Assembly: GCF_028641065.1 (NCBI RefSeq)
Contig: NC_073391.1
Location: 14,384,001 to 14,448,000, forward strand
Length of the DNA: 64,000 nt
Origin: Leucoraja erinacea
Taxonomy: Eukaryota
Direction: 5' to 3'
The number at the start of each line of letters is the position of its first letter. The stretch's first letter is position 1. The notes under the pieces were generated by a model, which was not told where the DNA came from, searched no databases, and saw only the letters and a program-made list of their open reading frames with translations. Below, piece by piece: positions 36,205 to 53,500 of the stretch. Both the position numbers and the translations under genes were made by a program.

Positions 36205-39200
36205 CTATCCCTTCAGATAGTTAATGAATGGAGCCCAGATTTTATCGAAAAGATCTTGTTTGTCCATTAAGACAAGTCTAATTCTTTCTAAGTCTAGGGT
36301 CTCCGACATTTCCGTAATCCACATTTTAATTGTGGGGGTTGTAGGGCCTTTCCAAAATGTTAATATTAATTTTTTCCCGATTATTATACTGTAGTCGAGG
36401 AAATTTATTTGGTTTGTTGTGAGTGTTAAACTTTGTTCTGATATTCCAAGTATTATTAATTTTATGTCTGGGTCCAGTTTTGTATTAATAACTTCTGAAG
36501 TTATTTCAAAAAGTCCAGAAATGTTTAAGTTTTATACAGTTTGCAAACGTGTGTGTTAAATTAGCCTCTAGATGTAGACATTTATCACAAATAGGAGAGA
36601 TTTGTGGGAAGATTCTATTTAGTTTTATTTTAGAGTAGTGTAGTCTATGTAAGACCTTGAATTGTATTAAAGTATGTCTGGCATTTAATGAACATTTATG
36701 TATTTGTGTAAACTTTCGTGCCACATATCTTTCGTTATAGGGTGACCTATTTCATTTTCTCATTTGTATCTATATGGTTCGGTCGGTGGTACCACGTTGT
36801 TTAGTAGGGTGTTATAAATATAAGCTATTAGTTTTTCAGTATTAGGATGCTTGTTCAAACATTCATCAAGAATTTCTGATTCCCTACTCCTGTAGACTTG
36901 TGTATTAGATTTAACATAATCTCTAATTTGTAGATATCTGAAGAAATTATTTGAGTGCAGTCCATAATTCTGTTGTAACTCTTGAAATGAAAGAAAAGTG
37001 CCTTTCCCATAAAGATGTCCTATATTTTTGATTCCATAATTTTTCCATTGTGTGAAACCTTTGTCCATAAAGGATGATTTGAATAAAGGATTATTTACAA
37101 TGGGAAGGCATAGTGGTATATTATTCAATTTTAAATCTTTTTTTATTTGTTTCCAAATTCGTATTCCACTATGTATTATGGGGTTTTCTTTATAGGTTTT
37201 TTTGTGCAGTTTTGTGGGGGCAAATATGATCGGTCCAATTTCAAAAGGTAGACAGTCTTCCTTTTCCATCATTAACCAATCTGGTTGTTGATCCATTTCT
37301 TCCAGCCAGAAATTCATGTTTTTAATATGGACTGCCCAAAAATAAAATAAGAAATTTGGCAAAGCCAAACCTCCATTTATCTTTGACTTACATAAATGTT
37401 TTTTACTTATTCTATGATTCTTATAATCCCAGACAAAACTTGTAACAATGGAGTCGACTTTTTTGAAAAAAGTTTTTGGGATATATATCGGAATTAATTG
37501 AAGTAGGTACAGCAGTTGCGGTAAAAAAATCATTTTTATAGCATTAATTCTCCCAAGCATAGAAATGGGGAGTGTTTTCCAGTATTGAATATTCTTATGT
37601 AGTTTATTCAGTAAGGGTGGGAAATTTAGTTTAAATAAAGAGATATATGTCTTAGTTACATAGATTCCTAAGTATTTAAATTTATCTTTAACTATTTTAA
37701 AAGGGGATTGTTGTATTGTATGTAAATTGAATTTTGTTATTGGCATGATTTCGCTTTTATTCCAATTAATTCTATATCCCGAAAACTGACCAAATTGAGT
37801 TATTAGATTTAATAGGTTTGGAATACTAATTTCTAACTATGTAATATATATTAGTACATCATCTGCATATAAGGAGATTTTATTCCTTGTGTCTCTAGTA
37901 TTGTATCCAAATATTCCTGGATGGTTTCTAACGCTTTCTGCTAGGGGTTCGATTGCAAGAGCAAATAATAGTGGGGATAGTGAACATCCTTGTCTACAGC
38001 CTCTAGAGAGATTAAATTTAGTTGATAACATTTTGTTTGTTAATATTCTAGCTGTTGGATTAGAATATAACAATTTAACCCATGTACAGTACTTCTCTCC
38101 TAGTTGAAAATTTTCCATCACCGAAAATAAATATGGCCATTCTACCTGGTCAAATGCTTTTTCAGCATCTAACGAGATAATTGCTAGATCTGCATTAGGG
38201 ATTCTATTGGAGTATATAATATTAAATAATCTTCTCAGATTATAAAATGAATACCGTTTGGGGATAAACCCTGTTTGGTCGGGATGTATTAATTTGCTGA
38301 TCACTAAGCTCAATCTATTAGATAAAATTTTAGTTAATATTTTCTGATCAGTATTTAAGAGGGCTATAGCTCTGTATGAACCTGGGTCTTCAAGATCCTT
38401 GTCCGTTTTTGGTATGAGTATGATTATAGATTCATTTAGAGTTTCTGGGCGTTTCTGTTGAGTATAAGCGCATTTGTACATTGTCTGTAGGCGTGGGGAA
38501 AGCAAATCATAATTTTTTTAATAAAATTCAGTCCATCGGGGCCTGCAGACTTTCCGTTTTTTAAAGATTTGATGGACTTCGATGTCTTTTATCGTAATTT
38601 CAGCCCCTAGCAATTCTCTCTCTTTCTGATCTAGACCCGCAAGCTTACAATTCTGTAAAAATGTTTCCATTCCCGTTGATTGTTCTGTTATTTTAGATGA
38701 ATACAATTTTTGGTAGTATTGTAGAAATCTATCATTAATATCTTTAGGCAGTGTTAATGTTTCTCCCTTGTCTGTTCTAATTTTGTATATTGTTTTTTCC
38801 CCATCCAATTTGCGAAGTTGACGCGCTAATAGTTTTTGTGGTTTATCACCAAATTCAAAATTTAATTGTTTTGTATGTTGATAAAGTTTTATAACTTGGT
38901 CTGAATATATCTTGTTTAATTTATATTTCAGTACTGCAATTTTATTATGTTTTATCGTGGATGGTGCTGCTGCATTTTCTGTGTCTAATTGCTTTATTTC
39001 CATTTCCAGTTTCTGTTGTTTGGCCCTATTCTCTTTATTAAAAAATGATTGGGGAGAAATTAATGCTCCTCGTACAAATGCTTTAAATGTTTCCCAAAGA
39101 AGGGAAGCAGAGATTTCAGGGCTATCGTTAGCCTCAAAAAACATTTAAATCTGTTTTACTAGGTATTCATTACATAACTTATCTTTTAAGATTTGGGGAT

Positions 39201-39972
39201 TAAATCTCCATTGTGACTGTGTCTCTACCATTCCGTTTAGTTTGATCATAAATGTTAATGGAGCGTGGTCTGAGATTATGATGTTATGATATTGCGAGTT
39301 ATAGGTAAATGGGATAAGTTTTGAATCTACTAAAAAATAGTCTATCCTTGAGTAGGTTTTGTGTACTGGTGAGTAAAATGAATATTCTCGGCCCGATGGA
39401 TTTTCAATTCTCCAAACGTCCTTAATATTAGTAGTATTAATGTATGAATTAAAAAATTCACTTGATCGAGATTTTAGTTTTCTTTGAGTTGATGATCTAT
39501 CCAAACAAGCATCCAATGTACAATTTAAATCTCCACCGATTATTAAGTTTTGTTGTGTACATTCTGGGATATTGTTAAGAATTCTCTTAAAAAACAGAGG
39601 GCTATCAAAATTTGGTCCATACACATTGAGGAGAGTCACCTTTTTTGAGTATAACTCCCCTATTATTACAATATATCTGCCTTCAATGTCTTCTATCATT
39701 GATATATGTTTAAAGGGTATACCTTTACGAATTAATATTGCAACACCTCTAGATTTATGTGAGAATGAAGAGTGGTACACTTTAGCAATCCATTTTGCTT
39801 TCAATCTGTGTTGTGCTTCCTTTTTAAGATGTGTCTCCTGGAGTAATATTATATCTGTTTTCAATGATTTTAAATGAGCTAACACTTTGCCTCTCTTGAT
39901 AGGTTAATTAATTCCCTTAACATTCCAACTACAGAATTTAATTCCCCCAATTTTTATATTCATGTCTTGCAT
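36205..39972 (-). pseudogene. L1 ORF2 (APE endonuclease, RT, Cys-rich), several stops and frameshifts
   Basis: SWNVKGIN, LQETH, SDHAP; SLDAEKAFD, GCRQGCSLSPLLF, YADD; CDKCLHLEANLTHTFANC; ends WAPFINYLKG*. Confidence 0.93.
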
Positions 39973-49566: not shown

Positions 49567-50437
49567 CTAGACCAAGTGCAGAACCGTTGGGTCTGTTTCC
49601 CCAACGGCGTTTGCGGGGGGGGGGCTGCAGCATCACACTCACATTAACCACCCCCCAAACACACAGGTGGGGTTAGGGGGGGGTGAGAAGAGGGGAGAGG
49701 AGGAGGAGGAAATGGGACAGAATTGGGAGGGAAAGGAGAGCCGGGTAGGGGGGGGTGAGAGAGGGGGATGGGGAGAGAGATGGGGGGGGGGGGGAGGGGG
49801 AGGTAAAATAGGGGGGATGGAGGGAGGGAGGGGGAGAGGGGTAGGGGGAGAGAGGGGAAAGAGTGGGGAGGGAGAGTGGAGGGGGAAGGGGGGAGAGAAG
49901 TGGAAGAGTGGGGAGGGAGGGGTAGGGGGAGTGGTGGAAGAGGGACAGAGAGGGGTAGGGGGAAAGGGGGGGGGGGGAAAGGGAAGGGGGTGGGGTAGAG
50001 AGTGAAGGGGGGTGTGGGAGAGAGGGATGGGTGGGAGAGGGAGAGGGGTGAGGAGACGGAAACATAGAAACATAAGATTCTATAAGATCCCCCCTCAATC
50101 TTCTAAATTCTAGCGAGTACAAACCGAGTCTATCCAGTCTTTCTTCATATGAAAGTCCTGACATCCCAGGAATCAGTCTGGTTAACCTTCTCTGTACTCC
50201 CTCTATGGCAAGAATGTATTTGGGCATTGGGCATTGTGACATCACACGATGGAACGCTCACCAGGGGCTGGGGCTGGGGCTGGTGCAAAGGCATATGTAA
50301 ATGGTTCCATTCCGATTGGACATCTGCGAGCATTGGGCATTGTGACATCACACGATGGAACGAATCAAAAGGCAGAAAGGCAGCCGGACGGACGCCGGAC
50401 GGCAGGCGGCAGCCACACAGTTTTAAATATAGATAGA
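49567..50437 (-). mobile_element. Non-autonomous Helitron
   Basis: Minus strand starts TC and ends CTAG, inserted between A and T. Subterminal hairpin CCGTTGGG...CCCAACGG at 49584-49607, 13 nt from the CTAG. No TSD. Confidence 0.8.
49670..50060. repeat. Polypurine G-rich low-complexity tract
   Basis: Almost pure G/A sequence with many G-runs. Confidence 0.9.
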
Positions 50438-51423
50438 TTACAGTACTCTAAAAAATCCACAAAACTAAAAAGAATCAATCTATTGGAGCGATATACCTTG
50501 TTTATGGAGATTTTTTAATACAGATATTTAAAATGTACAATGAAAGTACATTTGCAATTGATTGAGAATTTCAACATTTGCTTGCTGTCCATATTTCATC
50601 ATTAACCTCTTTCCCAAGTTGTTTGGATGCCTATGCAGAAAATTGACCAATTTCTATATCCATTGCACAGTATGCTAAATCATTTCAACTAACAGAATGA
50701 AACATTATACCTCTGTTAGATTTCCTTTATATGCGCATAGGATGATGTGTAAAATTCAAACCATTCCTTTTAATAAACATGAAACATACTATTCCTCATT
50801 CTGAAGTAGGTTATGGAATCAATCTGAAGTTTTTTTTTAAAGTTAGCACTGCCAGAAATACAATATTTAAAAGAGCTTTTGTGAAAAATAATCTTTCAGC
50901 ACAGAAACAGCACTGGATACATTCCAGAATGGAATGCCTTATGCGAACAAGATTTGTGATTGAAAATCTGAAATTATTAAAAACATCTATCAAAATGAAT
51001 GAAAACTACTTTTAAGCCATTATGCTAGACAGAAGCCCTGAAAATAACTTTTTGATGTGGTAGATTTTATTTAGGTGCAACAAGGAAATGGAAGCCACTG
51101 CTTAAAATATGATTAGCACATAATGTGAGTATGATTAAATTCCATTCAACTCACACGATCCACATTTAATTCCAGATGTGATGGGAAGTAGGATTTGTAT
51201 GGAAAGAAGTTTTTAATTGAGTTATGGAAATTATGATAGTGCCATTTTGTCATAAGTTTTCAAACTTTGCCAAGTGATTTGTTCTCTTCAATGTGTTCTG
51301 CTGGGAGTAAAGTAGGTAATTGAGATCCTTCTCCCATCTAATATATTGATAACTTAAATTTATTGCAAGAAAAATTTAGGTTTCAAAGTTATTTACAAAA
51401 TTTTAACTATTGCTGTAGCCTTA

Positions 51424-52044
51424 AGGGCCTGTCCCACTTGGGCCTCATTTGCGCGTCATTTACTCATCATCCTAAAAATTGGTTGGCCCATCATGACGCG
51501 CACAAGGCGCGTGGTGAGGCGTGGTGGCGTATGCAGTGACGCACAGTAACGAGCGGCGCCCCAGGATTTTGGAATGCTCAAAATCTTTGCACGCCACCGG
51601 CGTCACATGTCCCTTGCGCACGCTGACGTACTGATGGCGCATGCTGATGTACTGACGGTGTACGTGTAGTGCTTGGTGATGCATGGTTATGCACGGTGAC
51701 GCACGGACATTGCCGAAGCTAATTTATTATTCGTCACCGTACGTCAACCTCCGTAACCATGCGCCACCCATACGTTGTCGGTGTGCCATTTGCGCTCAAT
51801 TTGAGCGCCGCACCACGTGACCACCCGGGTATAAAGCGCGCGTAGTTTTGAAAATTTCTCACTGGGAGATCGGACTAAGTATGAACGACATCACAAATGG
51901 CTCCCAAAAGAAGCAGGGCCCTCAAGAGCACTTGGCATGTGACTGGCGTACTGTTAAACGATTTTCGCGCGACAGTCGCTCGTCAGTCATGACCGGCCTG
52001 TTGCGTAAATGACGCGCAAATGATGCCCAAGTGGAACAGGCCCT
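51424..52044. mobile_element. PIF/Harbinger MITE
   Basis: ~40-bp TIR AGGGCCTGTCCCACTTGGGCCTCATTTGCGCGTCATTTA. 3-bp TSD TTA at 51421-51423 and 52045-52047. Confidence 0.9.
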
Positions 52045-52047
52045 TTA

Positions 52048-53500
52048 CAAAGCTTTAATGCTTGTTTTGCCTGACTTTTCCTCGCTTCTTTCCAATATTC
52101 TGTCCTACTGGTCCTGGACTCTCTAATATTTTGCAATCTTGACCCACATGGGCCATTTACGATCCCAGAGCACCTGGTCCCAATCTGGGCACTCGGCCAT
52201 TATGTAATGTTTCTGGACCCTATCCAAGGAGCTTGTGAAGCGACCGGGGTAAGGGTCTGGCGGTTCTGATGTGCAGTCAGGAGGGAGTATGGACAACCTT
52301 TGATTCCTTGGTGACTGTCTCACCCGCTAAATTCCCACCCAGTCGCTGTGAGTCACTTCACAGGAGGTTTGCTGAACACCCCTCAAGGCAGACTTGCAGA
52401 GTTTACCCTCACACCTGGACAATTTACTACCTCTTTAACAACTTGTACTGTTTCTCAATCCTATCTAAAGAGCTAGGGAGGAGACCGGGGTAATAGTCCA
52501 GAGGTTGTGATGTACAGTCAGGAGGGAGTATGGATGACCTTTGAATCCTTAGTGATCGTCTTCCCCACAAAATTCCCGCCCACTCCCTCTGCGACCACTG
52601 TTTTGTTCGGCGCGTCTGTGATTCGGGCAGGGTGGGACCACAAAAATTAACCACTCAACCGTGCCCACCCAGGGACGCCAAATTGTTGACCTTATTACCT
52701 CTATAAGGTATCAACTGACGTGTCGAACACAAGACTCTGAAACCAAGGTTTAATACAACTTAATCTTTATTAATATTCGAGTAACTTAAACATGTATGCA
52801 AACAATTGACTTCTAATAACTTCATTTACTTTACTATCTCAATATCACTTCTTAAACTAAATCACAAAACTCATGACTTGGAGTCAGATATTACCCGTAT
52901 GAATGAATTGGCCAGATTCATTCTGTTGGTAGGGGGTCGCCTTCTCTAAGCTTCGCTCAGGTTCTTCTTTCCTGCGATGGTTGTTCCCGGGTTTTCGCTC
53001 CCGATGTCTCGGACCGCCCTTCTTTTATACTAATTTTCCTACAATCTCCTAAAGGAAGCCTTTGTTCTAACCTAAGGCTCTCACAATTCTAAAGTCGATC
53101 ATTTTGAGTTGTCACTCATCCAAGTGCCGAATAAACAAAACGCATCTTCATTCTTTATCAGGCTAGGGAGTTCTTAATTATGTTCCCTGTTCATAAATTC
53201 ATTCTCATCATACAGTTCCTCTGCAAAATGACTGTTCTCAGACACCGTATCTTCTCAAGACCATACTGCCTAGCCATGAAGTTACTTGCAGCTCTGTTCT
53301 CACCAGATGCCCATCAAGTGACCATTTTCACAGTGCTTCTTTGATCTCCTGTTTCCAACGTTTCTTTCTAGCCAGCAGCTTACTCCCAAAGCTTGTCGGG
53401 ATACTTGACATCAAGTCTCCGGCTACAGTCTTAAATTAGCAAAATGCCACGATGGTAGAATTTACGCAATGTATACTGGAGTTAGTTACACATATAAATT
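52048..53500 (-). mobile_element. LTR-retrovirus/ERV-like 5' remnant: LTR, PBS, leader and possible gag start
   Basis: Minus strand: TATA GTATAAAAG (~53030), AATAAA (52766-52771), LTR end ...TCAACA at 52684, PBS 52663-52680, duplicated leader, short stop-interrupted ORF from ~52200. U3 boundary uncertain. Confidence 0.7.
52663..52680 (-). promoter_or_regulatory. Primer-binding site complementary to tRNA-Asn
   Basis: TGGCGTCCCTGGGTGGGC is the reverse complement of the vertebrate tRNA-Asn(GUU) 3' end GCCCACCCAGGGACG-CCA. Confidence 0.88.

Follow-up and report, generated by a model that had tools for sequence, protein, structure and literature searches.

Sampling at the base of the retrovirus tree is poor, and it is disputed where the foamy-like and loki-like elements of fishes and amphibians belong. 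The subject of this study is an endogenous retrovirus (ERV) relic lying in a 64,000-nt stretch of Leucoraja erinacea DNA (contig NC_073391.1, positions 14,384,001 to 14,448,000; hereafter the window, with position 1 as its first letter), where a long terminal repeat (LTR) on the minus strand is followed by a primer-binding site (PBS) fully complementary to tRNA-Asn.

Three sets of described systems come closest to this element. The galago foamy virus PSFVgal carries the identical 18-nt tRNA-Asn PBS right after its 5′ LTR, as printed in the part of PMC4261875 available to this study, and the newt elements NviFLERV-1 and -2 (FLERV, foamy-like endogenous retrovirus) are described as tRNA-Asn users in the accessible text of PMC5512871; the association of tRNA-Asn priming with foamy viruses, which the first-pass annotation of this locus had brought up, is thus in print for both. 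Among cartilaginous fishes, Aiewsakun and Katzourakis (2017) reported that the shark CmiFLERVs group with the frog XtrFLERV at the base of the foamy-like elements, where resolution is weak, and their supplement tree lists CoeEFV.2 beside CmiFLERV (PMC5512871). Song et al. (2023) report just a single chondrichthyan ERV of spuma-like type, that of the catshark (PMC10699275). Finally, the lokiretroviruses of Wang and Han (2020) were described, in the available text of PMC7947760, as the sister lineage of all other retroviruses, with an Env resembling the paramyxovirus F protein.

Compared with these systems, the window copy (53427-52046, minus strand) is best explained as the truncated 5′ end of a long-dead ERV, likely primed by tRNA-Asn(GUU), whose family likely branches deeply, outside the foamy and class I viruses, and carries an env-like gene predicted to encode a class I fusion protein of the paramyxovirus F type. 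Taken as a whole, this account is considered quite probable.

The primer-binding site and its LTR

The PBS, TGGCGTCCCTGGGTGGGC, matches the host's own tRNA-Asn(GTT) genes at 18 of 18 positions, the last three bases pairing with the CCA that is added to tRNAs post-transcriptionally. These genes were located with a 21-nt pattern made of 15 complementary bases and 6 further bases; it matched 22 loci, and all six of those fetched were tRNA-Asn(gtt) genes according to ARAGORN, ending in GCCCACCCAGGGACG. The window contains this 18-mer a single time and 100 shuffles gave no instance of it, while the 2.19-Gb genome has only two exact copies, one at this locus and the other in the C9 provirus, so that a perfect tRNA-Asn PBS, as first annotated, lies far beyond chance. 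The same 18-mer was found at nt 1270-1287 of a 12,118-bp contig from IMG/VR (locus L116), and, with respect to the primers used by Spumaretrovirinae (tRNA-Lys1,2, and tRNA-Asn in PSFVgal), it is identical to the PSFVgal site. Reverse transcription of this ERV was likely primed by host tRNA-Asn(GUU).

The possibility that the 18-mer is a tRNA fragment, lacking LTR context elsewhere, had been named in advance as one that would overturn the annotation. It was dropped, as was a chance origin: besides its absence from the shuffles, the 18-mer sits 3 nt past the LTR end and recurs in the same place in three other proviruses.

In the portions of the literature searched, no PBS is reported for CmiFLERV, XtrFLERV or the lokiretroviruses, and the accessible text of PMC5512871 gives no PBS, gag or env description for CmiFLERV, XtrFLERV or CoeEFV.2. 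As a separate observation, the core of the 12-mer given as the NviFLERV-1 "tRNA-Asn" PBS in the supplement of PMC5512871 matches the tRNA-Lys PBS printed in PMC4261875 and not the tRNA-Asn 18-mer; judged by these letters, the published tRNA assignment of that PBS may need rechecking.

The LTR boundaries were set by comparison of about 30 genomic copies, which settled the length of 744 bp that the first-pass annotation had left to be defined, and the ends follow the TG...CA pattern. Since the LTR starts at TGTAGCC (53427), finishing in CAACA (52684), the box initially drawn at 52048..53500 was 73 nt too wide at its outer limit. Within these boundaries, the TATA box, the GGGTAAT, the AATAAA, the CAACA end, the 3-nt spacer and the PBS all stand on the minus strand where they had been described, and the gag-start peptide quoted at that time reads as given (Table 1). 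Among 29 aligned LTR copies, whose pairwise identity averages 0.847, 26 retain AATAAA and 15 have TATAAAA without change, most of the remainder being one base off the latter; GGGTAAT is exact in 13, with its GT kept in 22.

Table 1. Coordinates of the ERV features within the window
Feature	Positions	Strand	Basis
5′ LTR, 744 bp, TGTAGCC...GGTCAACA	52684..53427	minus	boundaries common to ~30 genomic copies, 78-85% identity
TATAAAA, promoter-like box in U3 (putative function)	53023..53029	minus	sequence read
GGGTAAT, putative splice-donor-like motif in the TATA-AATAAA interval	52890..52896	minus	sequence read
AATAAA polyadenylation signal, 258 nt past TATA and 82 nt short of the LTR end	52766..52771	minus	sequence read
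Spacer ATT (3 nt) between U5 and PBS	52681..52683	minus	TTT at the same spot in the C9 provirus
PBS, complementary to the 3′ end plus CCA of host tRNA-Asn(GTT)	52663..52680	minus	tRNA genes of the host genome
Leader, 462 nt, with tandem duplication of a ~241-nt unit	52201..52662	minus	common to proviruses C9, C5, C1a and C1b
gag start (MAECPDW...; MGECPDW elsewhere), cut at 52045	52046..52200	minus	alignment with 4 other copies

Sister proviruses and their env-like gene

The interpretation of the locus as the remnant of a retrovirus-type 5′ LTR with its tRNA-Asn PBS was borne out not only by these signals but also by relatives elsewhere in the genome. A search with 52100-53500 returned at least 46 matches, nearly all of which span only about 73-820 of the query, that is, the LTR; as 40 candidates were scored out of 384 from the first look, such counts are lower bounds. 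The PBS is held by 2 of the 30 LTR loci fetched, the others being solo LTRs or 3′ LTRs. Around at least nine distinct solo copies the target duplication is exact and 4 bp long, with several more agreeing at 3 of 4 bases, which answers the question of duplication size raised in the first annotation; that of the window copy is unreadable because its 3′ end is missing. With an internal probe, 28 candidates yielded 38 matches, and the proviral loci fetched, seven from this probe and three chosen through env matches, are all decayed. Among the seven, the PBS is present in three, exact in C9 and with one mismatch each in C5 and C1b. The family therefore amounts to dozens to hundreds of solo LTRs plus about ten decayed proviruses.

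Independently of this inventory, seven LTR copies on seven contigs (L004, L005, L008-L012) do not differ in their flanks, and all have ATCC as their 4-bp duplication; a single solo LTR was evidently carried along when a larger repeat or segmental duplication multiplied.

The first-pass annotation had asked for full-length copies; in these decayed sister proviruses, regions for gag, protease, reverse transcriptase (RT) and integrase were recognized, along with a polypurine tract and an env-like gene. The family gag starts with MGECPDW and encodes a coiled-coil stretch and a single CCHC knuckle, which scored 29.8 bits as zf-CCHC in C21 (Pfam cut-off of 20.8) and is also visible in C1a, C1b and C2. 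The protease carries DTG and the RT YVDD, and nucleocapsid (NC) and protease share one frame in C1b. Pfam searches with 26 open reading frame (ORF) pieces returned RT_RNaseH_2 (41.4 bits), RVT_1 (29.4 and 26.7 bits) and rve (22 bits), but nothing for a gag capsid or an env family. Apart from a 332-aa protease-RT (PR-RT) ORF, the family has no long open frame. About 1.9 kb separate the integrase from the 3′ LTR, which is immediately preceded by the polypurine tract AAAGGGGGGAT in four of four proviruses.

The replication of such an element would have followed a familiar course: transcription would start past the TATA box and stop past AATAAA, tRNA-Asn would anneal 3 nt beyond U5 and prime minus-strand DNA, AAAGGGGGGAT would prime the plus strand, and integrase would generate the 4-bp duplications. 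Most proviruses would then have been reduced to solo LTRs through LTR-LTR recombination. Three LTR pairs have diverged by Kimura two-parameter distances of 0.065, 0.072 and 0.120. With assumed rates of 0.5e-9 substitutions at each site per year (catshark; PMC10699275) and 2.2e-10 (elephant shark; PMC4422223), this divergence corresponds to roughly 65-270 million years, the rate being the main uncertainty.

A related, apparently env-less lineage was also observed in the same genome, at C9:60512001-60532000 (L041/L042), C4:64641001-64651000 (L045), C1:80300001-80310000 (L044) and C6:34049001-34059000 (L043). It is 40-44% identical to the family in PR-RT, one copy keeps an open Pol of 1167 aa, the gag-TGA-pol junction is in frame in four of four copies, and the LTRs of one element are 92% alike. 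The 18-mer that resembles a PBS in this lineage is present in 26 exact copies across the genome, and no tRNA gene stood at any of the three loci fetched.

The search for env genes that the first-pass annotation had proposed revealed, in the sister proviruses, an env-like region that matches no family but has a cleavage site, heptad repeats and a transmembrane anchor. A profile of the family fragments, run against 1.84 billion representatives, found 14 proteins, and all seven of those looked up are shark proteins. These seven come from Heterodontus francisci, Heptranchias perlo, Pristiophorus japonicus and Chiloscyllium punctatum, with a Chiloscyllium plagiosum protein as a cluster member, and they give the label "chondrichthyan" applied to the lineage indirect support only. 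In their alignment (A3), R-x-R-R and G(I/T)IN are followed by a long heptad, a Cys-rich core (about 200 residues), another heptad, a conserved W-rich membrane-proximal motif and the anchor, and the distance from cleavage site to anchor is about 380 residues. This spacing fits the paramyxovirus F1 subunit better than a retroviral transmembrane subunit.

Searches for a known fold provided weak leads, all in one direction. With an AlphaFold model of the shark relative P0123 as the Foldseek query, 15 of 16 first ranks were F chains of paramyxo- and pneumoviruses (best E of 0.053; redundant entries, not independent), and the ESM Atlas offered Baculo_F clusters (scores of 0.88-0.90, TM of 0.42). With E allowed to reach 10, Pfam returned only noise for 12 env-like fragments, PF00523 matched neither these fragments nor the 14 relatives, and a word-index search with A3 recovered only two proteins, both already known. 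The layout makes a class I fusion protein built like paramyxovirus F a lead, not a result, and it is about as probable that the prediction is right as that it is wrong.

One of the shark entries deserves separate mention: P0132, a Heterodontus francisci model named "fbxo15 isoform X3", ends in about 190 residues of ERV env-like sequence comprising heptad, W-rich motif and transmembrane anchor, so that either the gene model is chimeric or a fragment of env has been exonised.

Placement among retroviruses

In order to place the family, references were taken from natural virus genomes in IMG/VR, selected by protein patterns and PBS motifs and checked for group by Pfam, and named database proteins were added. 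Two RT trees were built, a quick one of 59 rows and a careful one of 36 rows, from which the loci of lenti- and beta-like type, together with L078, L093, P0007, P0008 and a few redundant rows, were left out to remove long branches. In the careful tree, the two rows of the target family join at 100/100 (100 in the quick tree), and the 32 retroviral rows, target included, split from the four Gypsy rows at 100/100, the same split receiving 100 in the quick tree. The target clade comprises 11 rows (84/88 careful; 89 quick), including the env-less lineage and proteins from frogs ("NYNRIN-like"), Latimeria and Xenopus tropicalis, which are the closest named proteins at 37-42% identity. Moreover, foamy and class I-like rows of the careful tree form a clade without the target (95/95), the target also falls outside the 14-row class I-like clade (99/96), and forcing foamy and target rows together costs 9.1 log-likelihood units (lnL) in the approximately unbiased (AU) test, with p of 0.0285. 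On these sequence comparisons, the family likely represents a basal retroviral clade, sisterhood to the foamy viruses being a possibility. Since this clade likely lies outside foamy plus class I, the family is "foamy-like" only in the loose FLERV sense.

Gathered together, several observations weigh against this placement and the envelope prediction. The window copy has neither pol nor env, so the lineage rests on sister copies, whose LTR and leader are 78-85% identical to it. The target RT rows consist of one 332-aa ORF, with about 165 RT residues, and one copy read through six breaks with X, and no published FLERV or lokiretrovirus sequence stands among the tree rows. The support of the target clade itself is moderate (84/88), and the AU test on the 59 rows found foamy plus target slightly better (lnL +2.9, p-AU 0.562), for which reason the basal position is not secure. 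Against solved structures in the PDB, the best match of the 332-aa ORF, over its RT fingers and palm, is foamy PR-RT (78 bits, E of 5e-21), ahead of Ty3 (43 bits) and murine leukaemia virus (MLV; 31 bits). For the envelope, Baculo_F matched 1 of the 14 relatives, with an E of 0.0011 that falls short of the cut-off set by Pfam; the P0123 model, built with A3, is poor (pLDDT 58.5, pTM 0.33) and found nothing at E 0.001 in Foldseek; and the A3 profile had no match among PDB sequences at E 10.

The RT match and the unrejected constraint of the 59-row test are part of the case for a true foamy-like ERV, a sister group or basal member of Spumaretrovirinae, which is how the FLERVs of sharks and frogs were initially classified. 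The PBS shared with the galago foamy virus (as printed in PMC4261875) points the same way, as does the integrase of the env-less lineage, whose best PDB match is that of prototype foamy virus (PFV; 122 bits), and the presence of relatives in Xenopus and Latimeria, both with FLERVs published in the available text of PMC5512871. However, the careful tree and its AU test keep the target out of foamy plus class I, and the whole Pol of the env-less lineage scores higher with Ty3 (233 bits) and the RT of xenotropic MLV-related virus (XMRV)/MLV (230 bits) than with PFV PR-RT (196 bits). Spuma_A9PTase and SH3_11, found in eight of eight foamy reference loci and in the Pol of PSFVgal, are likewise lacking: the target pieces gave no match to Spuma_A9PTase, Gag_spuma or Foamy_virus_ENV at E from 0.01 to 10, nor to SH3_11, and the clade members P0005 and P0012 gave none to Spuma_A9PTase, SH3_11, MLVIN_C or RVP at 1e-5. 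Foamy virus Gag has no Cys-His zinc knuckle, whereas that of the family has its CCHC, and the single NC-protease frame of C1b and the in-frame gag-TGA-pol of the env-less copies also speak against foamy membership. In comparison with PSFVgal, whose LTR measures 1,267 nt, the family has an LTR of 744 bp, a CCHC Gag, no spumavirus Pfam signature and an RT outside the foamy clade. A true foamy affiliation is thus unlikely, and of the foamy link suggested by the first-pass annotation the identity of the PBS stands, while strict membership does not agree with Pfam and Gag and is disfavoured by the careful tree.

The likeness to the CmiFLERV, XtrFLERV and CoeEFV.2 elements could be drawn by description only, as the portions of the PMC5512871 supplements at hand hold no alignable XtrFLERV or CmiFLERV sequence. 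A cartilaginous-fish host, relatives in Xenopus, other frogs and the coelacanth, and a weakly resolved base are common to both descriptions, and because this host mix matches that of the target clade, the family may well be of the CmiFLERV/XtrFLERV kind.

Some traits of the family recall gamma- and epsilonretroviruses. Class I viruses have 4-bp target duplications, a CCHC nucleocapsid, NC and protease in a single frame and an in-frame gag-TGA-pol; the first three are seen in the family and the last in its env-less relative. In contrast, the family RT lies outside the class I clade, and MLVIN_C and RVP, present in five of five gamma/epsilon-like loci, are lacking from the clade members.

An ordinary Ty3/Gypsy LTR retrotransposon was also considered, since RT_RNaseH_2 and Integrase_H2C2 occur in Gypsy elements as well, and the best match of the 80-aa integrase fragment of the target is Ty3, at a weak 32 bits that is uninformative beside the many integrases scoring 25-30. 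The 100/100 branch that parts the clade from the Gypsy outgroup tells against it, so that the relatives did not group with ordinary Gypsy elements, as the first-pass annotation had allowed they might. So do the env-like gene with its transmembrane anchor and the RNase H architecture of P0005 and P0012, in which an RT_RNaseH/RT_RNaseH_2 tether is accompanied by an extra RNase_H domain, the target family itself having given a tether-type match only. A full PBS exactly 3 nt past the LTR end, recurring in three other proviruses and in 0 of 100 shuffles, is equally hard to reconcile with a Gypsy element or with a chance or tRNA-derived 18-mer of no retroviral meaning, and the probability left to these explanations is negligible.

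The lokiretroviruses resemble the basal reading favoured here in several respects, and an identification of the family as one of them would rest on the basal RT position in both trees, the dual RNase H of P0005 and P0012, and an F-like env layout with F chains in 15 of 16 first Foldseek ranks, all with non-significant E values. The frog relatives are named "NYNRIN-like" by NCBI, and NYNRIN is presumably the same gene as CGIN1. In the accessible text of PMC7947760, the lokiretrovirus integrase is reported to be close to CGIN1, and the viruses are described with a basal RT, a dual RNase H and an F-like Env bearing an early R-x-K/R-R site, heptads and a transmembrane anchor. Nevertheless, a supplement table gives 0 of 6 chondrichthyan genomes as positive, CmiFLERV and XtrFLERV are listed apart from the Loki rows, and the printed Loki RT motifs differ by eye from those of the target clade (PMC7947760). 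Furthermore, six 8-residue words of P0012 (Xenopus) and P0003 (bullfrog) are absent from the searched part of the supplement that prints Loki-Xtr, where the presence of its Pol was unchecked (PMC7947760), and the env-like sequences have no PF00523 match. That the family is a lokiretrovirus is accordingly very improbable.

For the deep-branching family itself, these comparisons carry some implications. Primer choice appears to be a poor marker of lineage, because a primate foamy virus and a very distant, old fish retrovirus used the same tRNA-Asn PBS. Among the rows compared, the family brings a cartilaginous fish into a basal clade whose other members are from frogs and the coelacanth. At least five shark species conserve its env-like gene, and an F-type fold, if true, would bear on how early retroviruses obtained their envelopes. 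A bolder proposal is offered tentatively, and is less likely than not to be right: sharks and rays may carry a deep-branching lineage, neither spumavirus nor described lokiretrovirus, that pairs a foamy-type tRNA-Asn PBS with a paramyxovirus-F-type fusion envelope. In that case, retroviruses with F-type Env would also occur in cartilaginous fishes, a group in which a dedicated screen had detected none, and a second basal branch would become available for rooting the retrovirus tree.

The truncated copy and its neighbourhood

Downstream of the PBS, the two leader repeat units of the window copy (52203-52350 and 52444-52591) are 79% alike, and the gag ATG follows at 52200-52198, 462 nt past the PBS. 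Relative to four other copies, the gag stub has suffered deletions of 9 nt and 4 nt, and its first ~50 codons remain. Two TAG triplets had been taken as possibly mutated TGG codons, which is wrong: they come after the 4-nt deletion and are out of frame, and the idea finds no support since identical triplets also stand out of frame in the other four copies. The family homology ends at 52042-52045, no ERV sequence was detected past 52045 within the window, and the earlier statement that no pol is present there was correct. The window copy is an inert, truncated, fixed and very old ERV 5′ end; as an object it is a real relic and ordinary in kind, derived from a poorly charted deep lineage.

Contigs from public runs labelled as four organisms (A-D) match the locus at 95-100% identity. 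One organism D contig spans the junction between LTR and flank, with 148 nt inside the LTR and 373 nt outside, and therefore the insertion would be common to at least organism D, if the labels correspond to distinct species. The truncation junction at 52045 was not counted as spanned, given that the contigs of the other organisms have fewer than 31 letters beyond it. Contigs of organisms C and D omit about 240-260 nt of the leader (window 52203-52591), and those of A and B cover both units; as the former fit a single unit, the leader duplication looks younger than the insertion.

The break point of the ERV adjoins a 623-bp element (51423-52045) with 47-nt terminal inverted repeats that are 91% complementary. 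In each of the four runs, the contig depth summed over its arms was very high, which indicates a high-copy repeat resembling miniature inverted-repeat transposable elements. Further away in the window, the minus strand carries long stop-to-stop frames at 37837-39903, endonuclease-like and reverse-transcriptase-like, which constitute the remnant of a non-LTR retrotransposon, and about 320 nt at 49743-50060 are G-rich and of low complexity, with loosely repeated GGGGA/GAGAG units.

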